Below are positions 2,704 to 41,936 of a stretch of DNA of 64,000 nucleotides, piece by piece; position 1 is the stretch's first letter; every line of letters begins with the position of its first letter. Under the pieces are notes generated by a model, which saw only the letters and a program-made list of their open reading frames with translations, made no database searches and was not told where the DNA came from. Source of the stretch: Candidatus Curtissbacteria bacterium RIFCSPHIGHO2_12_FULL_41_17 (GTDB lineage Bacteria > Patescibacteriota > Microgenomatia > Curtissbacterales > GWA2-41-24); assembly GCA_001774945.1 (NCBI GenBank), contig MFBL01000015.1, positions 529 to 64,528 on the forward strand, read 5' to 3'. A program made the position numbers and the translations under genes.

Positions 2704-2946
2704 TTACTTAGTAATCTGATTCTAACACTACAAACAAAATTATTACACTTTTGATTTAGTAGCGTTACTTGCGCTTGGTTGACTGCCCGTAGTAATTTTG
2801 TTAGAATTCGCATAGATTTTTTAGCTCTAGTATCTAAATTGAGGAGGGGCGCCAAGTGCGCCTTTTTTAATAATAGTTCTGGGTTCATAGATCATAAACT
2901 ATGAACTGTGAACTCAAAACTAAGAACTAAATTCCAGAGGAATTTC

Positions 2947-4266
2947 ATGGCAATACAGGCAAGAACAGAATTTGCGTCAGCTTTAAATCAGGTTTGCTCC
3001 GAACGGGGAGTCGAACCGGAAGTGGTAATTGATTCTATAAAACAGGCGATTTTAGCGGCTTACCGAAAAGATTATGGCGATCCTGAAGGGATCGATGTCG
3101 ATCTTAATTCGGAAACAGGCGAAGTTGCTCTTTCAAAAGGCAAGAAAAAAATCACGCCTTCAGGTTTTGGTAGAATCGCCGCTCAAACTGCCAAGCAGGT
3201 TATTTTGCAAAGAATTAGGGAAGCCGAAAAAAATGCCATCCTTTCCGAATATTCCTCAAAAATTAATACAGTTGTTTCGGGCATTATCCAGCGAATTTCC
3301 GGCCCCATTATTACTGTTAATTTAGGTAAAACAGAAGGAATTATGCCGCCGCAAGAGCAAGCCCACAACGAAAAGTATGTCCTCAATCAAAGGATGAAAT
3401 TTTACGTTGTGGGTATTAAAGAAGGCGCAAGAGGTGAAGAAATAATAGTTTCAAGAAGCGCCCCCGGGCTTTTAGAGGGACTTTTCAGACAAGAAGTTCC
3501 TGAAATTTCAGCAGGTAGCGTCGAAATCAAGGTAGTGGCCAGAGAAGCCGGTTCCAGATCAAAAATCGCCGTTTATTCTTCTCAACTGGGGGTGGATCCG
3601 GTTGGATCTTGCGTTGGGCAAAAAGGGGTTAGAGTACAAGCGGTAATTAACGAACTTTCAGATGAGAAAATTGACGTTATTGCTTACCAGGAAGACCCAG
3701 TTGAATTTATAAAGGCAGCCCTTTCACCGGCGAAAGAATTAAATGTCACAATAAATGAGAAAGAAAAAACAGCCCTTGTCATTGCCCCTGATGATCAACT
3801 TTCACTGGCAATCGGTAAAGAAGGCCAGAATGTCAGGCTGGCCGCAAAGTTAACAGGTTGCAAAATTGATATTCGGGGTAAAAGCGGAACCCCGAAAGAA
3901 GTTGAGGCTAAAGAAAAAGCGGCACAAGAAGAAGCAAAGAAAGCCTTAGGGGTGATCGAAAAAATTGAGGCCAAGGAAGCGAAAACTCAGCCTGAAGACA
4001 AACAGGCCCAAATCCCAGGTCAACAGCCTCAAACTCCCGTTGATGATCAAGCCAAAGCTAAAGGAAGTAAAGTGGAAGACTCAGACGATGAAAAGGTTAC
4101 CAAGCAGGAAACACCTCAGGGCCAGATTAAAGAAGAATCAGTTACTAAGCCGATCAAAAAAAAGGCAACAGCCAGTCAATCTGAGACAGAAAACCCCACT
4201 CCAGAGCAAAAGGTCAATCCGCCCCGCCAGCTAGCGAACCAGACGGCGAAAAAACTACTTAAATGA
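2947..4266 (+). CDS. nusA: transcription termination/antitermination factor NusA with long K/E/Q-rich C-terminal tail
   Basis: MAIQARTEFASALNQVCSERGV.. N-terminus, with S1 and KH regions (GSCVGQKGVRVQAV, LAIGKEGQNVRLAAKLTG). The ATG at 2947 follows AGAGG. The ORF-track start at 2908 lies inside the upstream repeat array. Confidence 0.9.
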   Translation: MAIQARTEFASALNQVCSERGVEPEVVIDSIKQAILAAYRKDYGDPEGIDVDLNSETGEVALSKGKKKITPSGFGRIAAQTAKQVILQRIREAEKNAILSEYSSKINTVVSGIIQRISGPIITVNLGKTEGIMPPQEQAHNEKYVLNQRMKFYVVGIKEGARGEEIIVSRSAPGLLEGLFRQEVPEISAGSVEIKVVAREAGSRSKIAVYSSQLGVDPVGSCVGQKGVRVQAVINELSDEKIDVIAYQEDPVEFIKAALSPAKELNVTINEKEKTALVIAPDDQLSLAIGKEGQNVRLAAKLTGCKIDIRGKSGTPKEVEAKEKAAQEEAKKALGVIEKIEAKEAKTQPEDKQAQIPGQQPQTPVDDQAKAKGSKVEDSDDEKVTKQETPQGQIKEESVTKPIKKKATASQSETENPTPEQKVNPPRQLANQTAKKLLK

Positions 4267-9441: not shown

Positions 9442-10455
9442 ATGATTGGGACCCCACGCCCAGAAGCTTACCGCAAGTTAAAACAATTTCCTATATTTGA
9501 AAATAAGTGGTTGATTTTAACGATATTTGTTATCCTTCTTTTAGTAATTTTTGTTATTTCTTCCAAATTCACAAATGCCGGCACAGGTTTAGAAATTACG
9601 CCAATTGGTAATAAATTTAGGCTCAATTTTCAAATACCCAAAAATGATCAAGAAAACTTTTCCCGCACACTATCCCAACTCAATCTGCCTCAAGAGGTAA
9701 AGGAAGGGGTCGAGTTTGAACTTGACGCAACCTCATCTGCCGCGCTTGCTTTTGCTTCACCAATAAATGCCAAATTAAATTTTAAAACGAAGCAAGTTAA
9801 AATCAAAGGTTTGACAAATTCAACCTCGCCAGTTTTATTTTTACCCGAAAGCTTTAAGCTGCCTCAATCAACAAAATTGGCTATTTTTGCGCCAGATATA
9901 AAGAATTTCCTTGATAGTCAGGTGAATATCCCGCCGGAACTTACCAGTTTTATAAATAATCTATTTTCCCAGAGAGGTCAGCTGCTTGCATTTTATAATG
10001 ACAATGATTTTCTTATGATTACAAAAGCAAACCAAGTCAATTTTGATGATCTTAGCAATTTAAAGATTCCCAAGGAAGAAGAATTTTATAAAAGAGAGCA
10101 GATTGAAGAATCTTTTGAAACTCACCTTTTAAAACTTCCCCAAAAAACAGAAAGTCAAAAATCTACACTGTCTATTTTCCAATTAGGGCAATGGATTTTT
10201 ATTGCGTCCTCGCAAGAGGCGGCACGCAAGTTTATTCAGGTACAAAAATTTGAAAAAGGCGCGATAGAATTTCCCAAAAGCAAACAAGCTACTTTAGTAG
10301 TTTTAATAAAAAATCCAGATATTGATACCGCAAGTTCTCTTGGGCAAATTTTACTAAGCTCAAAAAAAGATTGGCTGAATATATTCTCAAACATACAGGA
10401 ATTGGAATTTGTTTTGAAGGGCAATGTGTTTTCTGGTTTAATTAATCTAAAGTGA
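9442..10455 (+). CDS. N-terminally anchored hypothetical protein
   Basis: 337-aa ORF with one N-terminal hydrophobic helix (WLILTIFVILLLVIFVISS). No family recognised. Confidence 0.6.
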   Translation: MIGTPRPEAYRKLKQFPIFENKWLILTIFVILLLVIFVISSKFTNAGTGLEITPIGNKFRLNFQIPKNDQENFSRTLSQLNLPQEVKEGVEFELDATSSAALAFASPINAKLNFKTKQVKIKGLTNSTSPVLFLPESFKLPQSTKLAIFAPDIKNFLDSQVNIPPELTSFINNLFSQRGQLLAFYNDNDFLMITKANQVNFDDLSNLKIPKEEEFYKREQIEESFETHLLKLPQKTESQKSTLSIFQLGQWIFIASSQEAARKFIQVQKFEKGAIEFPKSKQATLVVLIKNPDIDTASSLGQILLSSKKDWLNIFSNIQELEFVLKGNVFSGLINLK

Positions 10456-11513
10456 ATTCAACTACTGCCCAATTCGAGGACATAAAACTTCTTGAGGATA
10501 AACTCAAATCAGCCAAAATCCCGCTGGATTTATACCAAAAAACGCAAGTAACGATCGAGCGGCTTACCAGGCTCGCGAAAACATCTTCTTATTCTCAAGA
10601 ATATGATCTTGTCACAAGATATTTGGAATGGATTGTTTCCTTACCATGGGATAAAAAAAGCGATGATATCCTATCGCTTGATAAAGCCCGCCAGGTTCTA
10701 AACGCCAATCATTACGGTCTTGACCAAATCAAGGAGAGGATACTCGAATATATTGCGGTTGCAATGTTAAAAAAGGATCAACCTGAAAGTACATCAAAAA
10801 ACAATAAAGCCCCCGCTCTTCTTTTAGTAGGGTTAGTTGGAACCGGTAAGACTACTATGGCTTATTCGATTGCCCAAACATTGGGCCGGCAGTTTGGAAG
10901 AATCCCGATGGGCGGTATGGGGGATGCATTACAGCTTAGAGGGAGATCACGCACCTTTCCGGATGCAGAACCAGGTCTTATAATGAAGGTACTTAGAAGA
11001 GTAGGCACCAAGAATCCTGTAATACTTCTTGACGAAATTGATCGGGTAACAGAAGAGGCCAGAGCAGACATCATGGGAGTGCTGGTGGAACTATTAGACC
11101 CTGAACAAAATAGTAAATTTCTTGACCATTTTATCGATTACCCGTTTGACCTATCCCAGGTACTCTTTATTGCAACTGCTAACAACACGGCAGGGATAGC
11201 GACAGCTGTACTGGACCGATTGGAGCTATTAGAAATGCCGTCTTATACTGATGAGCAGAAAACAATAATAGGCAAAAATTATCTTCTGCCGCGAGCCCTT
11301 GCAGCTTCTGGGCTTTCAAAAGAAGACCTAGTCTTGGAAGAGAATATTTGGCATCAAATTGTAAGACCATTGGGTTTTGATGCTGGTATGAGAACATTGG
11401 ACAGGACAATTAATGGTATTTGCCGAAAAATCGCCAAATTAAAAGTAGAAGAGAAAGTAGAAAGAGTTAATATAACAGGCGATAATCTCAAAGAATTTTT
11501 GCCCTCATGGTAA
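10452..11513 (+). CDS. Lon-like AAA+ ATPase module without a protease domain
   Basis: The Lon-type pre-AAA segment (LEWIVSLPWDKKSDD...NHYGLDQIKERILEYIAV), Walker A (GLVGTGKTT) and Walker B (VILLDEIDR) are present. The ORF stops where the Lon protease domain would begin. The GTG start overlaps the previous stop. Confidence 0.75.
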   Translation: MNSTTAQFEDIKLLEDKLKSAKIPLDLYQKTQVTIERLTRLAKTSSYSQEYDLVTRYLEWIVSLPWDKKSDDILSLDKARQVLNANHYGLDQIKERILEYIAVAMLKKDQPESTSKNNKAPALLLVGLVGTGKTTMAYSIAQTLGRQFGRIPMGGMGDALQLRGRSRTFPDAEPGLIMKVLRRVGTKNPVILLDEIDRVTEEARADIMGVLVELLDPEQNSKFLDHFIDYPFDLSQVLFIATANNTAGIATAVLDRLELLEMPSYTDEQKTIIGKNYLLPRALAASGLSKEDLVLEENIWHQIVRPLGFDAGMRTLDRTINGICRKIAKLKVEEKVERVNITGDNLKEFLPSW

Positions 11514-11531: not shown

Positions 11532-11680
11532 GAGTTTATATTCGCTCGCAGAATACCATCGAGTCAGACTCGACGGATGAATGCGAGAGCGAATACATAC
11601 TTCCGAGGATTGGAAGTATTCTGCTCGCTCATGTAAACTTGAAGAACAATACCGAGGACTCTTAGTCCTCGGAAGTTTAT
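11532..11680 (+). repeat. ~150-nt multi-hairpin intergenic repeat, copy B
   Basis: Same element as 719-865 in inverted orientation. Hairpins lie at 11556-11576, 11598-11618 and 11652-11672, with enclosing stems TATTCGCTCGC/GCGAGAGCGAATA and TAAACTT/AAGTTTA. Confidence 0.85.
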
Positions 11681-11778: not shown

Positions 11779-13860
11779 ATGAGAAGGTATCGCAGAAACA
11801 AAATTGTATCGCCTCTAAATTTAGAAAAAAAGACAATAATGTCTATTTTAGGGGTTGTGACTTTAGCTTTTTCTGTACTGCTGCTCCTCTCATTTTTTAC
11901 CCAGGCGGGTATTTTGCTTTCTCTTAGAGCGTCACTATTTAGGGTATTTGGCGTAAGTATAGTTAGTATTCCGCTTTTTGGATTAATTTTCAGCCTGATA
12001 CTCTTTTCTATAAAATCAAGATTTACTAAAATTAATATTATACTTGGTAGTGTTTCACTGGTACTTTCAGCAAATGGACTTCTTGCGCCCTTTTCAACTA
12101 ATCTGGCTGGAGTTTTAGGAGTAACTCTTTATACGACTATTAAATCAATTGTTTCTCCAGTTGGAGCATTTTTTGTTCTAGGTTTTACTTTTCTGGTTTC
12201 AATAATAATTGTTGCAAATACCAGTCTGGATCAGGCACTGACAACCATTACTAATTTTTATAAGTTCATAAGCAGTTTTACTAGAATCACCAAAAGATTT
12301 TTTAAAGTCCATCAACCCAGAATAGTCACAAAGAACCAACAAGAAATTTCTCCTGCGCGCGCAAATCTTCCTAAAAATCTTGACACAACTCTTTCGTCTA
12401 CTTTAGTTGCCAATAGTCCTGCTGATACCAGGGTTTGGGAATATCCTCCATTATCGCTCCTTGCCGATCCCAGAGGCAGTTCGGCAAATAGGGGAAATAT
12501 AAAACAAAATGCCCAGATAATTGAAAAAACTCTTGAAAGTTTTGGTATTGTTGCCCAGGTAGTCGAGGTTAATCCTGGTCCTACAGTCACCCAATATGCC
12601 CTGAAGATTCCAATGGGAACTAAACTTTCTAAAATTCTGACTTTGCAAAATGACCTGGCGCTGGCACTGGCTACTTCTACCGGTAATGTCCGTATCGAAG
12701 CACCTATTCCGGGGAAATCCTTGGTAGGAATTGAAATACCTAATATTTCACCGGACATAGTTTCACTCAAGAGCATTCTTTCAAGCGATGTAATGAGGGG
12801 TACTAAATCAAAACTGGCAGTTGGACTTGGTCCTGATGTTTCTGGAAGCACCGTTATTGCCGATATCGGTAAAATGCCCCATGTTTTAATCGCCGGAACA
12901 ACCGGTTCCGGTAAGTCGGTACTTTTAAATTCGATTATTGCAACTCTTCTTTTTAGAGCAAGCCCCCAGGAAGTCAAATTAATATTGGCCGATCCCAAAA
13001 GAGTGGAACTTACAGAGTATCAGGATATTCCCCACTTACTTACGCCGGTCATAGTTGATGCGGATAAAATTTTATCTAGCCTTAAGTGGGCGATGGCTGA
13101 AATGGAGAGGCGCTATAAATTATTCCATGAAGCTCAGGTGAAAAATATCTCGGGTTATAATGAGTTATCCGGATTTCAGGTTTTACCTTATATTGTCATC
13201 GTCGTAGACGAATTGCATAGCTTAATGGAATTTGCCCCGGTTGAAGTTGAAGATGCAATTTGCCGTATTGCTGCTATGGCTAGGGCAACCGGTATTCATC
13301 TTGTAGTGGCAACCCAAAGGCCATCTGTTGATGTAATAACCGGCCTTATAAAAGCAAACATTCCGTGTAGAATTGCTTTCAATGTTTCTTCAATGGTCGA
13401 TTCGCGTGTAATTATTGACCAGCCTGGAGCAGAAAAATTGCTTGGAAAAGGTGATATGCTCTATGTTCCTCCGGATGCTTCAAAACCGATGAGAATTCAA
13501 GGGGTTTTTGTTTCTGATACGGAGATTAGAAACCTTATCGGTTTTCTTAAAAGGTCTGGAATTACCCCAGAATATGCCCAGGAGGTTACCCAAATGCCTG
13601 TCGGTAAAATTGCTGGAATGGTTGGCGGTGAAATCGACGAGCTCTTTGAGGAAGCGGTAAGGACTATAGTTCAGTACGATCGTGCCTCTGCTTCACTTTT
13701 GCAGCGCAGATTGCGCATCGGCTACGCCCGGGCGGCAAGGCTCTTAGACGAACTCGAGATGGCCGGTATTGTCGGTCCGGGGGAGGGTTCAAAGCCCAGA
13801 GACGTTTTAGTAAAAAATGCAGATGAATACTTTCAAAGTCAAGTTCAAAATTCCTCCTAA
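11779..13860 (+). CDS. ftsK: DNA translocase FtsK
   Basis: N-terminal transmembrane helices, motor domain with GTTGSGKS and VVDELH, and a C-terminal winged-helix gamma domain (ASASLLQRRLRIGYARAARLLDELE). Confidence 0.92.
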   Translation: MRRYRRNKIVSPLNLEKKTIMSILGVVTLAFSVLLLLSFFTQAGILLSLRASLFRVFGVSIVSIPLFGLIFSLILFSIKSRFTKINIILGSVSLVLSANGLLAPFSTNLAGVLGVTLYTTIKSIVSPVGAFFVLGFTFLVSIIIVANTSLDQALTTITNFYKFISSFTRITKRFFKVHQPRIVTKNQQEISPARANLPKNLDTTLSSTLVANSPADTRVWEYPPLSLLADPRGSSANRGNIKQNAQIIEKTLESFGIVAQVVEVNPGPTVTQYALKIPMGTKLSKILTLQNDLALALATSTGNVRIEAPIPGKSLVGIEIPNISPDIVSLKSILSSDVMRGTKSKLAVGLGPDVSGSTVIADIGKMPHVLIAGTTGSGKSVLLNSIIATLLFRASPQEVKLILADPKRVELTEYQDIPHLLTPVIVDADKILSSLKWAMAEMERRYKLFHEAQVKNISGYNELSGFQVLPYIVIVVDELHSLMEFAPVEVEDAICRIAAMARATGIHLVVATQRPSVDVITGLIKANIPCRIAFNVSSMVDSRVIIDQPGAEKLLGKGDMLYVPPDASKPMRIQGVFVSDTEIRNLIGFLKRSGITPEYAQEVTQMPVGKIAGMVGGEIDELFEEAVRTIVQYDRASASLLQRRLRIGYARAARLLDELEMAGIVGPGEGSKPRDVLVKNADEYFQSQVQNSS

Positions 13861-14565: not shown

Positions 14566-14657
14566 CCCAAATTTCAAAGAAATTTGGAAAGGAAAAATGC
14601 GAGTGCGCTAAAAGTCCACAATTGTGGACGATTAACAGCACGAGCAATTTTGACGCT
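14566..14657 (+). repeat. conserved structured 5' leader element, copy 1 (shared with tuf)
   Basis: Aligns with 40232-40320. Hairpin CCAAATTTCAAAGAAATTTGG is identical, the second hairpin covaries (GTCCACAATTGTGGAC versus GTTCTCAATAGAAC), and the tail AGCACGAGCAATTTTGACG is identical and abuts the ATG. Confidence 0.8.
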
Positions 14658-14939
14658 ATGCTGCCCTTAGAACTTTCGCAAATTGTGCTTCTTACTGTTA
14701 TTATCATCCTGACAATATTCTTAGTGGTTTTGGGCTTCCAGGTTTTTTTTGTCCTGAAAGATCTAAGACTTACCCTCAAAAGAATGAATCATCTGTTTGA
14801 TGATGCCAATGAACTTGTATCGGAAGTGAAAAAACCTATCGAAAAGGCTGGCAATTTCTTTACAGCATTGACTGCAGGTGCAGGTATTATGCACTTACTT
14901 AAAAAGGGGTCAAAAAATGAGCGATCACGAGAAAAATAA
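14658..14939 (+). CDS. DUF948-like small membrane protein
   Basis: MLPLELSQIVLLTVIIILTIFLVVLGFQVFFVLKDLRLTLKRMNHLFDDANELV shows a transmembrane helix followed by a coiled-coil segment. The start is placed at the ATG that follows the shared leader; the ORF-track TTG at 14622 lies inside the leader hairpin. Confidence 0.6.
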   Translation: MLPLELSQIVLLTVIIILTIFLVVLGFQVFFVLKDLRLTLKRMNHLFDDANELVSEVKKPIEKAGNFFTALTAGAGIMHLLKKGSKNERSREK

Positions 14940-26135: not shown

Positions 26136-27239
26136 TTGAATATCCCAGTGAATAAAATACTCCAAATCGGTCCACCCTTTATTATTATCGCCGCACTACT
26201 TTGGAGTCTTGACGGACTTTTAAGAAGAAGCCTTTTTGTGTTACCCCCGGCTCTTATTGTGTTTTGGGAACATGTTTTAGGTGCAGTTATATTAATACCA
26301 TTTGTCCTTTTTTTAGGTCTGAAACTAGGCAAAATGACCAAGAAAGAATGGCTGGCAATTGTTTTTGTAAGCCTTTTCTCTGGAGCCCTCGGAACTATTT
26401 TTTATACGGCGGCTCTTGGTAAAGTTAATTATATCCAGTTTTCGGTTGTAGCTATGCTGCAGCAGCTTCAGCCAATCTGGACCATTACAACCGCAGCTAT
26501 TATCCTAAAAGAAAAATTGACAGGCAATTTTTTAAGGTGGGCAGCATTGGCACTTATTGCTTCTTATTTTGTTACCTTTAGGGATTTAAAAGTTAATCTT
26601 GAAAGCGGCAGCCAAACAATAGTTGCTGCAGGATTTGCTCTTGCGGCTGGGATGATGTGGGGTTCATCAACCGCATTTTCCAAAGTGGTCTTAAAGCAAG
26701 TTTCGTTTATAACGGCCACTTTTTTAAGGTTTATGGCATTGGCACTTATTGCTTCTTATTTTGTTACCTTTAGGGATTTAAAAGTTAATCTTGAAAGCGG
26801 CAGCCAAACAATAGTTGCTGCAGGATTTGCTCTTGCGGCTGGGATGATGTGGGGTTCATCAACCGCATTTTCCAAAGTGGTCTTAAAGCAAGTTTCGTTT
26901 ATAACGGCCACTTTTTTAAGGTTTATGATAGCACCTATATTTGCCCTGCTTTTTTTAGTTGGTTCAAATAAGGGCAGCAGTCTTTTTGCAATCACATTGC
27001 CTCAGGCATTTACACTGCTTGTTATTACTCTCACAACCGGAATGGTTGCTCTTCTTATTTATTATTTTGGCTTAAAAAAAACACCGGCTAGAGTTAGCAC
27101 AATTTTAGAACTTGTCTGGCCTGCTTCGGCAATTTTTATTGACTATGTTTATTTCAAAAAAACTTTATCGACGACTCAGCTGTTGGGGGTTTTTGTATTA
27201 CTTTTTGCAATTTACCAAGTGTCTAAATTCAAAAAGTGA
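26136..27239 (+). CDS. EamA/DMT-family transporter carrying an internal 64-aa tandem duplication
   Basis: Polytopic membrane protein with EamA-like repeats. The segment ALALIASYFVTF...ATFLRFM occurs twice, identically. Confidence 0.8.
   Translation: MNIPVNKILQIGPPFIIIAALLWSLDGLLRRSLFVLPPALIVFWEHVLGAVILIPFVLFLGLKLGKMTKKEWLAIVFVSLFSGALGTIFYTAALGKVNYIQFSVVAMLQQLQPIWTITTAAIILKEKLTGNFLRWAALALIASYFVTFRDLKVNLESGSQTIVAAGFALAAGMMWGSSTAFSKVVLKQVSFITATFLRFMALALIASYFVTFRDLKVNLESGSQTIVAAGFALAAGMMWGSSTAFSKVVLKQVSFITATFLRFMIAPIFALLFLVGSNKGSSLFAITLPQAFTLLVITLTTGMVALLIYYFGLKKTPARVSTILELVWPASAIFIDYVYFKKTLSTTQLLGVFVLLFAIYQVSKFKK
26544..26927 (+). repeat. perfect 2 x 192-bp in-frame tandem duplication inside the DMT gene
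   Basis: 26544-26735 equals 26736-26927 base for base. The junctions share the microhomology TTTTTTAAGGT (26528, 26720, 26912). Confidence 0.9.
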
Positions 27240-36122: not shown

Positions 36123-37067
36123 CTACAACGAGAATAAATCTAGCACTTGCTTTTTTCCTGTCATGGCTAAATCAAATATCTTTTCCCGATCTTGGGAAAT
36201 TCTTGAGATGGGCATCTCGGAAGGAGCAATAATCCCAATATTTATTGAATCTCCATGCAATCCAATTAGCTCTGCCGCTCGCGAATATTGTTTATGTCTT
36301 GCTAACATAGCAGTTCTAAATTCGGAGGAAAACTTACGCATATATACACTTGTAAGTAAACGTTCTAATAAACTGGCCCCATTTGCTCGCTCGCCTACAG
36401 TATTATTCAAAACCACCAATATATCTGTACACCCTTCCTGTATTGCTAAATCGATTGGAATACCATTCCCTATAGAACCATCACTGTACTTTTTTCCATT
36501 AATACTTATGGTACGGTTATAAACAATAGGAAATGCCGAGGAAGCGATGACTACTTTGACAATATCACACTCCTCTTTCACATCTATAAACTCACTTTTG
36601 CCCGTTTGGGCATCCGTAACGACAATAAAAAAACTCGAACGGGATGACCTAATTGTTTCCTGATCAAGCGGTTTTGTCTTTCGCATTATGTGTTCAGCAT
36701 AATCAAGGTCTAAAACACGCCTTAGACGCCTAACATCGATGAATCTTCTGTCCACTAAATCTTCATGCCAAAGCGAAGCTCCTAACTCTGTCTGTTTAGC
36801 AAGAAAATAAGCAAGGTCAGCAGCCCCAGACGAAACACCGACAACAACATCAAAAGTGTCATGGAAACCCAATTGTTCTAGGCCAACAAGTACTCCGGCA
36901 CCAAATGCTCCACGCACCCCACCGCCACCCATTACTAATGCGGTTTTAATCCTCTCGTGTGTATTGTCACCTTGATCAAGCAGTCTCTTTTTCTCAAGTA
37001 AATTTCTCACGAGCGTTGAATTTCTCGCTGATTCACCTTCTAAAACTTTGGAGCGTAATCTTTCCAT
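36123..37067 (-). CDS. patatin-like phospholipase
   Basis: Oxyanion motif GGGGVRGAFGAGVL, nucleophile elbow GVSSGA (GxSxG), and the catalytic Asp context DGSIGNGIP. Confidence 0.85.
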   Translation of the reverse strand: MERLRSKVLEGESARNSTLVRNLLEKKRLLDQGDNTHERIKTALVMGGGGVRGAFGAGVLVGLEQLGFHDTFDVVVGVSSGAADLAYFLAKQTELGASLWHEDLVDRRFIDVRRLRRVLDLDYAEHIMRKTKPLDQETIRSSRSSFFIVVTDAQTGKSEFIDVKEECDIVKVVIASSAFPIVYNRTISINGKKYSDGSIGNGIPIDLAIQEGCTDILVVLNNTVGERANGASLLERLLTSVYMRKFSSEFRTAMLARHKQYSRAAELIGLHGDSINIGIIAPSEMPISRISQDREKIFDLAMTGKKQVLDLFSL

Positions 37068-37287
37068 GGCTAAAATTGTAGCAAAAATAGTTCTTTAAGA
37101 GAAAAATCTTCTCTCTTGCATACTCATTTAACTTAAGATATAATTCCCGACTAGTTTGTACTTATCTGCCGGTCTTCGACCCTGAGGGCTCAGACCCGAA
37201 TGGGCAGGCAGGCGCCTGTCAAACGCCTAATTTAGCTTCCGCCTGGCTAAATCCAAAGAAGAATTTTTATATTTGGGAAATGATATA

Positions 37288-37327: not shown

Positions 37328-37606
37328 ATGAAAATAATTTCATTATCAAAGGCACAAAAACTGAAAAGCCTTAGAAAAAAACTCACGGAGCTTGAGGAAG
37401 TTAAGCTAAAAGAGGCTTTGGCTAAGTATGGGGAAGCCTACCAGGAGTCAGGAGCGGCCTGGCAGGAAAATGCCGCCTGGGAGCTGGCAGACGAAGAAGT
37501 GTCGGTTATTCGGGCAATGATTTCGGAAATAAAAAGAGAAATCACCGGTTTGGAACATCCTCTTCCTACTACTTCCATCCCGCTCACTATTAAAAAACAA
37601 AAATAA
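37328..37606 (+). CDS. small coiled-coil protein (hypothetical)
   Basis: 92-aa ORF of helical, charged sequence. No family recognised. Confidence 0.45.
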   Translation: MKIISLSKAQKLKSLRKKLTELEEVKLKEALAKYGEAYQESGAAWQENAAWELADEEVSVIRAMISEIKREITGLEHPLPTTSIPLTIKKQK

Positions 37607-37642
37607 TCCAAATTAGAAAAATATATGACGCAAACTGCTGAT

Positions 37643-37791
37643 CAATTTATTTTCGCTTCGCGAAAACCGTGGATTATTAATCCTCGGATGAAGCGAAGGG
37701 AAAACATACTTCCAAGGAAGTTTGGAGCCTAGACCAAAGACGAATGATATGATAGGTGAAAACCGAGGGTTCTTAACTCTCGGAAGTTTAT
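37643..37791 (+). repeat. ~150-nt multi-hairpin intergenic repeat, diverged copy C
   Basis: Collinear with copy B, with the same stem positions but different stem sequences (TTCGCTTC/GAAGCGAA, CCGTGGATT/AATCCTCGG, ACTTCC/GGAAGT, CCGAGGGTT/AACTCTCGG). The terminal CGGAAGTTTAT is identical. Confidence 0.7.
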
Positions 37792-37833
37792 TTTGCAACA
37801 CAAAAAGACATATTTAGCTTGGAGGAAAAAATA

Positions 37834-39975
37834 ATGGCCGAAAAACAAGCCAGACTTTATTCGCTGGACAGAATAAGAAATATAGGCATCATTGCTCATA
37901 TCGACGCGGGAAAAACGACCACTACCGAGAGAATCCTTTTTTACACAGGTAGGACCTATAAACTCGGAAATATCGATGAAGGCACCACCGTTACCGACTG
38001 GATGGCTCAGGAAAAAGAAAGGGGAATTACGATTGTATCGGCTGCCGTAACAACATTTTGGAAACCCAAAGATGGCCCGTTTGCCAACATTGACACACGT
38101 ATAAACATTATTGACACCCCGGGGCATGTCGATTTTACTGCCGAGGTTGAAAGATCACTGCGTGTTCTAGATGGAGGAGTCACCGTTCTTGATGCAGAAG
38201 AGGGGGTCCAGTCACAATCGGAAACAGTCTGGCGCCAAGCCGACAAATATAAAGTTCCCCGTATTTGTTTCGTTAATAAGATGGATAAAATCGGCGCAGA
38301 TTTTTTCGCAACGCTCTCCTCGATCCGCAAAAAATTACAGGCACCGGCAGTTGCCTACAATTTACCAATCGGCAAGGAAAATGATTTTAAGGGAGTTATC
38401 GATTTACTAACACAAAAGGCCTATATTTGGGAAGAAGAGGCTGTCAAAAAAGGAGGAATGGATTTTGTCAAGGTACCCATCCCAAGTGAATTGCTTGCTG
38501 AAACCGAAAAACATAGAGCCCACTTAATTGAAAAAATTGCAGAATGTGACGATAGTCTTGTGGAAAAATACCTTAAGGGTGAAGAATTGGGAATAGACGA
38601 ACTTAAATCAGCACTTCGACGTGCAGTCATCGAATATAAAATAGTTCCCGTGCTTGCAGGTTCCAGTCTACGCAATAAAGGTGTTCAAATGCTTCTTGAC
38701 GCAACTGTAGAATACTTACCTTCTCCTTTAGATATAGAAACGGTAGAGGGTATTAATCCTAAAACAGGTGAGAAGGAGATCCGCAAACAAGTAGTCGAAG
38801 CTCCATTTTGTGCCTTGGCATTTAAAGTCCAGATCGATCCGCATGTCGGTAAATTAAATTTCATCAGAATTTATTCGGGAACACTAAAATCCGGTACTTC
38901 TGTTTTGAATACGACAAAAAGGGAACATGAAAGAGTCGGCAGAATTTTACTAATGCATGCCAATACCAGAGAAGAGATTGCCGAAGCATACGCAGGAGAA
39001 ATTGTGGCAGTTGTCGGACTTAAATCAACCACCACAGGAGACACGCTCTGCGCTGAAAATTCTCCGATTATTTTAGAATCGATTTCGTTTCCGGACCCGG
39101 TCATTTCACTGGCAATTGAGCCAAGTACAAAGGCTGATCAGGAGAAACTTGGTTACGCTTTGGGCCGGCTTTCCGAGGAAGATCCGACGTTTAAGATTAA
39201 AGGTGATCCGGAAACCGGGCAAACAATTATTTCCGGAATGGGAGAACTGCATCTGGAAATCCTGGTTGACAGAATGAAGAGAGAGTTTGCAGTCGCTGCC
39301 AAAGTCGGCAGTCCGCAAGTTGCTTACAAGGAAACCATTAGAGAAACAGGCAGAGGTGAAGGTAAATATATTCGGCAGTCCGGTGGCAGAGGCCAATACG
39401 GGCACTGTTTTTTGAGGGTTGAGCCTAATCCTCGCGGTGAGGGTTATCAATTCGTTTCCGAGATTAGAGGTGGCGCTATTCCGCAAGAGTTTATTTCCTC
39501 AGTAGAAAAAGGAGTTCGCGAAAAAATGGAAACCGGGGTTTTAGCTGGATATCCGATGGTCGATATAAAGGTAGCAGTTTATGATGGTACTTATCATGAC
39601 GTTGACTCTTCCGATATTGCTTTTAAAATCGCCGGCTCTCTTGCTTTGGAAGAAGCCGTCAAAAATGCCAGTCTTGCGCTTTTGGAACCGATCATGAAAG
39701 TGGAAGTGACCATTCCCGAAGAATTCATGGGTGATGTAATTGGGGATTTATCTGCCAAGCGTGCTCAAATACTTTCAAGCGAACATCGGGCAAACAGCGT
39801 GATTATTACAGCCCTTGTGCCGCTTGCAGAGATGTCCGGCTATGTTACAACTCTTAGGTCTATGACTCAAGGGAGAGGATCAGCATATATGGAACCGTCA
39901 CATTACGAAGAAGTTCCCCAGAGTATAGCAGACAAAATCGTAGCAAGGGCCAAAGGTGAGGTAAAAGAAAGTTAG
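37834..39975 (+). CDS. fusA: elongation factor G
   Basis: [40 protein letters not shown]. The ATG at 37834 is preceded by GGAGG. The ORF-track TTG at 37819 would include the SD. Confidence 0.95.
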
Positions 39976-40231: not shown

Positions 40232-40320
40232 CCCAAATTTCAAAGAAATTTGGAGAGGAAAAATTTGAGTGCGTTTAATGTTCTCAATAGAACATGAATA
40301 GCACGAGCAATTTTGACGAC
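40232..40320 (+). repeat. conserved structured 5' leader element, copy 2 (tuf)
   Basis: See 14566-14657. An SD-like GGAGAGG is followed by a short uORF whose TGA overlaps an in-frame ATG at 40294. Confidence 0.8.
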
Positions 40321-41505
40321 ATGGCAGCAGAAAAATTTGAACGAACAAAACCACACGTAAATATTGGCACGATTGGCCATGTTGATCATGGTAAAACTAC
40401 GCTGACCAGTGCTATTACTCAGGTCCTATCCAAAAAAGGTCTGGCTCAGGCGAAATCCTTTGATCAGATAGATAATGCCCCGGAAGAGAAACAAAGAGGA
40501 ATTACTATTAATATTACTCATGTGGAGTACGAAACGGAAAAGCGTCACTATGCCCACATTGATGCCCCCGGCCATGCCGACTACATCAAAAACATGATTA
40601 CAGGTGCCGCCCAAATGGACGGTGCAATTCTGGTTGTAAGCGCTCCGGACGGGCCGATGCCGCAGACGAGAGAGCATGTTCTTTTGGCCAGACAGGTAAA
40701 CGTTCCGGCAATCGTAGTTTTTCTAAACAAAACGGATATGGTTCAGGATGCAGAACTTTTGGATCTTGTGGAACTTGAGGTGCGCGAACTTCTGGATAAA
40801 TATCAGTTTGATGGAAAAAATGCGACAATCATTCGCGGTTCGGCACTTAAAGCGATTGAAGGAGATGCACAAGCCGTTAAAGCGATTGAAGACTTAATGG
40901 CCGCAGTTGATGAAAAAATCCCCACTCCCGCAAGGGATTTAGACAAACCTTTCCTGATGCCGGTTGAAGATGTCTTTTCCATAAAAGGCCGAGGGACTGT
41001 TGTTACAGGCAGAGTTGAACGGGGCGTTATAAAAGTCAATGAGGAGATCGAAATTGTCGGAATTAGACCTACAAAAAAAACTATTGTAACAGGAGTAGAA
41101 ATGTTTAGAAAAGAGCTAGACCAGGGACAAGCCGGTGACAATATCGGCGTACTACTTCGAGGGATTGAAAAAGATGACGTTGAAAGAGGGCAGGTTTTGG
41201 CAAAGCCCGGCTCGACAACACCGCATACCGAATTCGAGGCAGAGGTGTATATCCTAACTAAAGAAGAAGGCGGACGACACACCCCCTTCTTTACCGGTTA
41301 TAGACCCCAGTTTTATATAAGAACGACCGATGTTACCGGAGAAGCAACTCTTCCCGAAGGAACAGAAATGGTTATGCCGGGAGACAATATTAAAATGAAA
41401 GTTAAACTTATCGAGCCGGTTGCTATGGAAGAAGGACTTAGATTTGCCATCCGCGAGGGTGGCCACACAGTAGGCGCCGGCGTAGTCAGCAAGATAATTG
41501 CGTAA
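40321..41505 (+). CDS. tuf: elongation factor Tu
   Basis: [41 protein letters not shown]. The start is placed at the canonical EF-Tu N-terminus. The alternative ATG at 40294 would add MNSTSNFDD. Confidence 0.95.
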
Positions 41506-41576: not shown

Positions 41577-41936
41577 CTAGAATACCTTACTTTTGTCATT
41601 CTCGCGAAAGCGAGAATCCAGATTCTCAGTCAAGTCTTCGACCGTGAGTCCCAAAGAGACTCCGCTCAGACCGAATCGGCTGAGAATGACATGAGGGGGT
41701 CTTGGCGAAGGATTGTTCGAGCGAAGTCGAGAACTATTAAAGTATGTCAATAATAAGATTTTACTTCAAGCCTAACCGCTTAAGAATCTAACTTCTCAAC
41801 TCGACAATTCCGCTCGAAGATTATCAATTGCTGTCCGAAAGGAATTGTGATTTTGAATTTTGCCTGCCTGCCGGCAGGCAGGCACTTTAAATTTTACTTC
41901 TTGCGAAGCAAAACCTCGTAAGATCATTAAACGTCA

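Follow-up and report, generated by a model that had tools for sequence, protein, structure and literature searches.

A small gene-less element upstream of fusA in Candidatus Curtissbacteria, a probable member of a mobile DNA family with covarying hairpins

The DNA analyzed here, called the window, is a stretch of 64,000 nucleotides from Candidatus Curtissbacteria bacterium RIFCSPHIGHO2_12_FULL_41_17 (contig MFBL01000015.1, positions 529 to 64,528), a metagenome-assembled genome (MAG) from the Rifle aquifer. It contains three copies, designated A, B, and C, of a ~140-nt structured element, and copy C lies directly in front of fusA, the gene for elongation factor G (EF-G). An earlier note on this DNA regarded copy C as a functional RNA whose stems are kept by compensatory changes. 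Comparison with further members of the family identifies copy C as a small mobile DNA element that encodes no protein, not as fusA's own regulator. The observations are best explained by a new family of Curtissbacteria mobile elements that resemble the palindrome-associated transposable elements (PATEs): copy C would be an insertion of a ~140-nt, gene-less and non-autonomous mobile DNA element, most likely moved in the style of the IS200/IS605 insertion sequences (IS), a reading to which a probability of about 0.6 is assigned. That the family is mobile is very probable, and the chances of an IS200/IS605-type route would be about even.

EVIDENCE FOR MOBILITY

Copy C is an inserted 141-nt element of the C-type subfamily at positions 37651-37791 of the plus strand (nhmmer, 1.9e-28), ending in ...CGGAAGTTTAT and adjoined on its 5′ side by the host pentanucleotide TTTAT (37646-37650), the target or transposon-adjacent motif. 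Copy B occupies 11535-11680 of the plus strand, with TTTAT at 11535-11539 and a 141-nt element at 11540-11680, and copy A occupies 719-862 of the minus strand, with TTTAT at 862-858 and the element at 857-719. All three are alike in having TTTAT before the element and the 3′ end ...CGGAAGTTTAT. Copies A and B are 91% identical to each other, and copy C is 67-68% identical to either; C is collinear with B, as the earlier note had observed, and its distances from the stop of the upstream open reading frame (ORF; 37606) and from the fusA ATG (37834) are also those given there. Profile searches found no fourth copy in the window.

The element is absent from the orthologous fusA site of the closest relatives, whose EF-G proteins are 89% and 85% identical to that of the window. 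In L034 and L035, the same 92-aa ORF as in the window is followed by fusA across element-free spacers of 27 nt and 79 nt, respectively, against 227 nt in the window. In L035, the 85% relative, a copy is instead located on the opposite side of the 92-aa ORF, upstream of it, and the matching element-free place reads ...GATCGACTTTAT|CCGCTT. Copy C itself is identical across ten assemblies of the same species, and the same locus is also found in GCA_001774785.1 and GCA_001774845.1.

A filled and an empty site can be compared directly in L111 and L049, where ...TTCATTCAT[ATTCGC...GGAAGTTTAT]AACCGC in the former corresponds to ...TTCATTCAT|AACCGC in the latter, with flanks of ~80% identity. The seamless junction indicates a precise insertion with a possible target duplication of at most 2 nt. 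Furthermore, 100% identical elements of 156 nt occur at unrelated loci of one metagenome (L144 and L089), and the identity between the two extends from TTTAT to GTTTAT. With L026:3812-3952, an unrelated locus of another genome, copy C shares 92% identity (130/141, ungapped), which places it in a mobile subfamily and argues against an orthologous leader.

These cases belong to a large family. When one genome per species was scanned with linker-based anchors, 24 matches in 23 loci were obtained, and a metagenome scan with a right-end pattern gave at least 119 stretches, the search pattern biasing the sampling toward short copies. Combined, the two scans define at least 112 distinct insertion sites, and the flanks are unrelated at every site.

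TARGET SITE AND ELEMENT ENDS

In the 5′ flanks of 112 sites the sequence logo stays below 0.25 bit, with no information upstream of -5, and then reaches 1.4-2.0 bits exactly at positions -5 to -1. The left pentamer is TTTAT in 89 of these sites, and most of the other variants are one position off. On the 3′ side, A is preferred at +1 (53/112), and a purine is found at +2 in 99 of the 112 sites. Similarity among copies starts sharply at TTTAT and stops sharply at ...GGAAGTTTAT, so that the element's own 3′ end is TTTAT as well. In the filled site of the L111/L049 pair, the host left pentamer is TTCAT and the right one is TTTAT; together with the 23 sites having a left pentamer other than TTTAT, this excludes a duplication of 3 nt or longer. 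The element has no terminal inverted repeats: its 5′ end ATTCGCTCGC is unrelated to the reverse-complemented 3′ end ATAAACTTCC.

A small gene-less repeat with an AT-rich target might also be a conventional cut-and-paste miniature inverted-repeat transposable element (MITE) that a DDE transposase mobilizes, duplicating 2 bp of the target (AT or TA), and the 2-nt ambiguity of the junctions in the filled/empty pair allows a duplication of AT. This is nevertheless extremely improbable: terminal inverted repeats are lacking, a duplication of TA was tried and rejected because only 53 of the 112 sites have A at +1, the 5-nt motif is one-sided and confined to the 5′ flank, and the covarying hairpins described below point to recognition of a single strand. 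MITEs with terminal inverted repeats, such as Correia/NEMIS, RUP, and ERIC, share with the Curtissbacteria element the size of ~100-150 bp, the intergenic location and the co-transcription with neighboring genes, for which they can supply terminators, promoters or processing sites. They differ in having terminal inverted repeats and TA or other fixed duplications, of which the Curtissbacteria element has neither.

FOLD AND COVARIATION

Copy C folds with -46.4 kcal/mol (z = -3.5), which none of 200 shuffled sequences equaled; the corresponding z-scores are -6.1 for copy B and -5.6 for copy A, so that all three copies fall within -3.5 to -6.1. The left domain of copy C (37650-37704, plus strand; minimum free energy fold, with pair counts on 111 sequences) consists of a long-range stem, P1 (37650-37661 with 37693-37704), that encloses the left subterminal hairpin P2 (37667-37675/37679-37687), and AAAA (37663-37666) stands just 5′ of the P2 foot. 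A middle hairpin, ACTTCC AA GGAAGT (37708-37721), follows on the same strand. The right end (37759-37791, plus strand) is made of AAAA (37759-37762), the hairpin P5 (37763-37771/37775-37783) and an 8-nt tail, AAGTTTAT.

Compensatory changes are evident between copies B and C in the first and the last hairpins. The first is CCATCGAGT/ACTCGACGG in B and CCGTGGATT/AATCCTCGG in C (37667-37687), with two double compensatory changes, one A·C repaired to G-C and one new T·T mismatch, and the last is CCGAGGACT/AGTCCTCGG in B and CCGAGGGTT/AACTCTCGG in C (37763-37783), with two double compensatory changes and one G·T. A covariation test, which the earlier note had proposed, was carried out as pair counts on 111 family members with slid-partner and 500-shuffle controls and gave a strong signal. 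In the proposed stems, 90% of the cells are paired, against 30-44% when the partners are slid, and 216 cells show double changes, against 33-82; none of the 500 shuffles reached the observed values. The covariation is strongest in the two subterminal hairpins, in which 83-95% of the cells are paired with many double changes; P5, for example, is 94.8% paired, and both sides change in six of its nine pairs. In the majority type both hairpins are alike and follow CCG[T/A]GG.CT.TT AG.CC[A/T]CGG. The long-range stem P1 also covaries, for example TATTCGC/GCGAATA vs. TAATCGC/GCGATTA and TTTTCGC/G.GAAAA. RNAalifold, applied to a gappy MAFFT alignment of the 111 sequences, returned only the invariant P4 stem, and a comparison of rates in orthologous pairs, at a loose threshold, contained only two true orthologous pairs and gave mixed results.

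The claim that every stem is kept by compensatory changes needs correction for the middle hairpin, which is variable and optional across the family: only 69% of its cells are paired, it is absent or replaced in many copies, and the form ACTTCC-AA-GGAAGT would need a 2-nt loop, which is sterically impossible. The outer stem, said to be replaced in C, has mostly the same sequence in B and C, pairing collinearly as TTTTC-G-CTTCGC/GCGAAG-G-GAAAA in C, and the pair TTCGCTTC/GAAGCGAA that had been reported for it is an overlapping alternative register. Some of the conserved linkers that were taken as single-stranded are paired in the A/B type, namely AAGTTTAT with GTAAACTT and GCAGAAnA with TnTTCTGC. 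The latter helix crosses P1 and has a duplex energy of -8.93 kcal/mol vs. -8.18 ± 0.14 kcal/mol for permuted partners; it represents either a pseudoknot or an alternative fold.

The G·T pair in the last hairpin of copy C had been read as a sign that the plus strand is the RNA. Across the family, however, G·U and A·C mismatches occur at similar frequencies (34/29 in P1, 77/51 in P2 and 22/26 in P5), and L026, 92% identical to copy C, has a perfect C at this position, so that the G·T is explained as simple decay. The lack of a preference for G·U means that inserted copies decay without favoring RNA-compatible wobble pairs, and the selection behind the covariation seems to act on the copies that propagate. 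Strand-neutral mismatches are what would be expected if copies decay freely once inserted and only moving copies are under selection. Most likely, therefore, the covariation reflects needs of the element's copying or movement as single-stranded DNA. Of the functional RNA proposed by the earlier note, a single-strand fold maintained by covariation remains, and an RNA tied to fusA or to gene ends does not, given at least 112 unrelated sites and the absence of the element in L034 and L035. A conserved structure with a changed sequence in front of fusA is in this case a property of a mobile repeat and no evidence for a fusA riboregulator, and a false lead is thereby removed.

RELATION TO NEIGHBORING GENES

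The alternative closest to the original idea is a family of structured cis-acting RNAs, borne on mRNAs and serving the host, for example in the control of read-through, as a terminator or attenuator, in processing or stabilization, or as a translation-initiation cassette, with dispersal being secondary. The complex conserved fold with its covariation, long-range stem and crossing helix would suit such RNAs. So would the bias in orientation: according to crude ORF calls, 36 sites are co-oriented with both neighbors and 16 are antisense to both. Yet these 16 sites, together with 26 others between divergent or convergent genes, speak against such RNAs, as do the absence from the orthologous fusA site, A·C mismatches as frequent as G·U, and the persistence of deletion derivatives. 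The neighbors, few of which were identified (FtsK, EF-G, and S2-like and glycosyltransferase-like N-termini), are functionally unrelated. Rfam gave nothing real at the gathering threshold in the whole window, where only a tRNA-Pro passes, and only chance-level matches at E ≤ 10 around copies B and C. A function as terminator, antiterminator or RNase site at gene ends, for which the earlier note had suggested a reporter test, is contradicted by identical copies at unrelated loci and by the sites antisense to both neighbors. Overall, a cis-acting RNA is unlikely.

The same alternative could draw on the start codons. At 24 sites the base following the element is G, and in at least 13 of them, i.e., ~12% of the 112 sites, the terminal AT of the element and this G form an ATG that opens an ORF of at least 60 codons, the element's GGAAG lying 3 nt upstream of the ATG (L014, L067, L110, L125, and copy A are among the examples). 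Judged by eye from the translated N-termini, these ORFs include a ribosomal protein S2-like and two glycosyltransferase-like N-termini, besides the membrane ORF at copy A. There, the last two bases (AT) of the element and G718 make up the ATG of a 64-codon ORF (720-526, minus strand). Because the element restores an ATG and brings GGAAG upstream of it, insertions at TTTAT|G survive. Thus about one in nine sites falls exactly on a start codon, which shows how an element can land in compact genomes without killing a gene.

At fusA, the element would have landed in the spacer between the 92-aa ORF (37328-37606, plus strand) and fusA (713 aa; 37834-39975, plus strand), whose GGAGG (37822-37826) lies outside the element. 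The 92-aa ORF has no Pfam match and is conserved, its homologues standing directly upstream of fusA in L034 and L035; both genes are context only. No promoter-like site was found between copy C and fusA on the plus strand, and transcription of fusA would start at a promoter in front of the 92-aa ORF and run through the element, which is presumably a passenger on the fusA mRNA. The last hairpin of copy C with its AAGTTTATTT tail was flagged as terminator-like on the plus strand, which is a point for the cis-RNA alternative. Any effect of copy C on fusA expression, for example partial termination at this hairpin, would be incidental.

The remaining copies have other surroundings. Copy B lies between an AAA/Lon-lid ORF (10452-11513) and ftsK (11779-13860), and the identification of the latter led to rejection of the idea that copy B precedes a fusA paralogue as a duplicated operon leader. 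Copy A is preceded by a 612-aa zinc-ribbon ORF and abuts the small membrane ORF mentioned above, and its locus recurs in a metagenome (L037). A replication origin near 2.8 kb, considered as an explanation for the inverted orientation of copy A, was also rejected; 2908-4266 encodes NusA, and the GC skew does not switch there.

POSSIBLE ROUTE OF TRANSPOSITION

The ends of the element can be compared with those of IS608 and ISDra2. IS608 is cleaved on the left at a motif that stands 19 nt 5′ of the left hairpin and is not part of the element, and on the right at a motif 10 nt 3′ of the right hairpin; base pairing with the four bases immediately 5′ of each hairpin directs the cleavage (PMC3201880, PMC5934647). 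The published pairs are TTAC/AAAG and TCAA/GAAT, with A+16:T-3 and A+17:T-4 (PMC3201880, PMC5934647). In the Curtissbacteria element the left motif is likewise outside and the right motif inside, and the hairpins are both on the same strand, with distances of 16 nt from the left end to its hairpin and of 8 nt from the right hairpin to the right end. Just 5′ of the P2 foot, the four bases are A in 93%, A in 95%, any base, and A in 89% of the copies, the third position being free (AA[C/T/A/G]A), and those 5′ of the P5 foot are AATA in 84 of 105 pattern-matched copies. From the published IS608 pairs (PMC5934647), a pairing rule was derived in this analysis, i.e., G1:C2, G2:C1, a non-canonical G3·C3, and G4:C4. 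For TTAT this rule predicts AANA, and the tetranucleotides seen are AA[N]A before P2 and AATA before P5, so that both putative guides fit it. In contrast, the sequences of the ends are unrelated to those of IS608 and ISDra2, and the left “guide” of the Curtissbacteria element also pairs with an internal segment.

On this model, a Y1 HUH transposase supplied in trans would bind both folded hairpins on one DNA strand, the short AANA guide 5′ of each hairpin would base-pair with the cleavage motif, and the strand would be cut out as a circle and inserted 3′ of another TTTAT, i.e., “peel-and-paste” through a single-stranded DNA intermediate. The head-to-tail junction GGAAGTTTATATTCGC was not found in 154 loci.

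PATEs, which derive from IS200/IS605 elements but lack their genes and are known from Haloquadratum and, as relatives of ISGst elements, from Geobacillus stearothermophilus, have much in common with the Curtissbacteria element: they are small, ORF-free and devoid of terminal inverted repeats, carry two subterminal hairpins, one per end, on one and the same strand, occur in many copies per genome, and are inserted 3′ of a specific pentanucleotide with a duplication of not more than 2 nt. Moreover, TTTAT is the adjacent motif of ISGst2 (IS605 family), whose end motif differs from it at two positions only, and gene-less PATE-like derivatives are known in the host of ISGst2 (PMC10055086). An end motif resembling the target motif is thus a shared feature, although the two are identical in the Curtissbacteria element. 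Further differences are that no cognate TnpA or parent IS was found in ~1 Mb of Curtissbacteria DNA, that the left hairpin is highly variable, that an extra long-range stem surrounds the left hairpin and a crossing helix is added, and that the hosts are small-genome bacteria of the candidate phyla radiation (CPR).

Several points weigh against an IS200/IS605-like element. In ~1 Mb of Curtissbacteria DNA, neither tblastn with an IS200 TnpA query nor a six-frame scan for HUH and Y motifs found anything, and no right-end match flanks an ORF-sized insert, so that no autonomous parent is known; the search for an autonomous parent or solo ends yielded deletion derivatives only. Ten unassigned ORFs of the window include no transposase. 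Because the limits of the element are uncertain by 2 nt, an AT duplication of 2 bp is possible. The long-range stem P1 and the crossing helix have not been described for IS200/IS605 ends, and the putative left guide is itself within a covarying helix. In addition, the left hairpin is very variable in sequence and length, even in recently moved copies, which is unusual if a transposase reads both hairpins alike. Lastly, the bias in orientation is only 36:16, and copy A has the opposite orientation to B and C, with no accompanying switch in GC skew.

Two other roles can be considered. The element might be a PATE coding for a guide RNA (omega RNA or reRNA) used by a TnpB or IscB nuclease acting in trans, the element being the scaffold and the 3′ flank the guide. 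Omega RNAs are frequently encoded by PATEs (PMC10055086), TnpB is known to use TTTAT as an adjacent motif, and a pseudoknot-like crossing helix and a sharp 3′ boundary would be in keeping with this role. However, as the element ends in TTTAT, identical to the target, such a nuclease would cut its own right junction, whereas the end motif of ISGst2 differs from the adjacent motif, which is said to prevent self-cutting (PMC10055086). With the left end set aside, only ~100 nt would be left for a scaffold; no TnpB or IscB was seen, and the element matches neither HEARO nor any other Rfam family. The guide-RNA role is therefore very unlikely. Alternatively, the element may be a structured mobile unit complete in itself, with a conserved multi-helix fold that carries out some of the work. 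This fold comprises the long-range stem, the crossing helix and an internal GTAAA that can pair with each of the two TTTAT junctions, and it may act as a catalytic or guide nucleic acid pairing with TTTAT or as the substrate of an enzyme class not yet tied to transposition in CPR bacteria. Such a unit is quite unlikely.

Repetitive extragenic palindromes (REPs) and the bacterial interspersed mosaic elements (BIMEs) built around them are also hairpin-forming intergenic repeats, spread by or co-evolving with a single-gene Y1 HUH enzyme, the REP-associated tyrosine transposase (RAYT; TnpA-REP). A REP/BIME-like repeat maintained by a single domesticated enzyme of this kind, with possible roles in mRNA stability or termination, would account for a many-copy hairpin-based intergenic repeat with a strand-specific architecture and without an autonomous IS. 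REPs are, however, much shorter: each is a single palindrome of 20-40 nt that bears a conserved tetranucleotide on its 5′ side, inverted pairs being common, and they have neither a defined two-ended unit nor an adjacent pentanucleotide target, whereas the present element is a 140-nt two-hairpin unit with defined ends and a target. As no RAYT-like gene was seen in the ~1 Mb either, a REP-like repeat is decidedly unlikely.

DISTRIBUTION AND VARIANTS

All 24 matches of the one-genome-per-species scan fall in MAGs of Curtissbacteria or Patescibacteria, some of them mislabeled, with up to five matches in one MAG. As far as sampled, the family is confined to Candidatus Curtissbacteria (Patescibacteria/CPR). 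Several element-bearing MAGs (L013, L014, L017, L022, L024, and L034) have record titles reading “uncultured Gammaproteobacteria”; these titles are probably wrong, since the EF-G of one of these MAGs, CAZLVB01, is 89% identical to that of the window. No match was obtained by blastn of copy B against plasmid and phage collections or by a scan of viral contigs, and no described repeat, MITE or IS605 element of Curtissbacteria or CPR was found in the literature.

Variants of the element are marked by an extended middle hairpin, a GC-rich hairpin nested within the copy, a very different left hairpin or internal deletions. None of them has room for a gene, the longest copy being 242 nt. The nested hairpin, short and of the type CCTGCCTGCCGGCAGGCAGG, stands before the last hairpin in L016, L023, L066, L082, L084, and L096, and within the first hairpin in L036; related GGCAGGCAGG motifs are found in intergenic DNA of the window at ~37200-37220 and 41871-41885. 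It may be a second, even smaller repeat or a local type of terminator. A strongly diverged family member is located at L026:4334-4461 (minus strand), ~375 nt from the C-type copy of L026. Both of its hairpins are replaced, by CTTCGAC..GTCGAAG and CTCCAGCTT..AAGCTGGAG, and the TTTAT|ATTC start, CATGTAAACTT and the AAGTTTAT end are retained.

The family documents active, structured, gene-less mobile DNA in small-genome CPR bacteria, for which no published description was found. With more than 100 sites, a sharp target motif and covarying hairpins, it provides a natural data set on the evolution of single-strand hairpin elements. Annotation pipelines for CPR genomes and screens for RNA motifs should mask it.

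OTHER OBSERVATIONS IN THE WINDOW

Upstream of copy C, 37625-37650 reads ATGACGCAAACTGCTGATCAATTTAT and resembles a relic or duplicate of the fusA 5′ end; a sequence similar to ATGACGCAAACTGCTGATCAATTTAT is the real fusA start in L034 (9995-10030), and in L035 (9941-9973) ATGGCACAATCTGCTGATCGACTTTATCCGCTT forms an out-of-frame mini-ORF before the real fusA start. Copy C sits exactly behind the TTTAT of this fusA-like relic. Further upstream, a patatin-like phospholipase gene (36123-37067, minus strand) breaks the rpsL-rpsG ... fusA-tuf order, and a different, co-oriented ORF of 364 aa takes its place in L035, so that the surroundings of fusA seem to be a hotspot of rearrangement or insertion.

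Two duplications were also observed. One, of ~95 nt and 79-87% identity, links 14566-14660 with 40232-40323 and covers the tuf leader together with a hairpin (CCAAATTTC AAA GAAATTTGG) and the first codons of tuf; its copy at 14.6 kb precedes a 105-aa ORF without a Pfam match. The other is a tandem duplication in perfect register at 26520-26903 (192 nt, 96% identity) inside an ORF of 367 aa (26136-27239).

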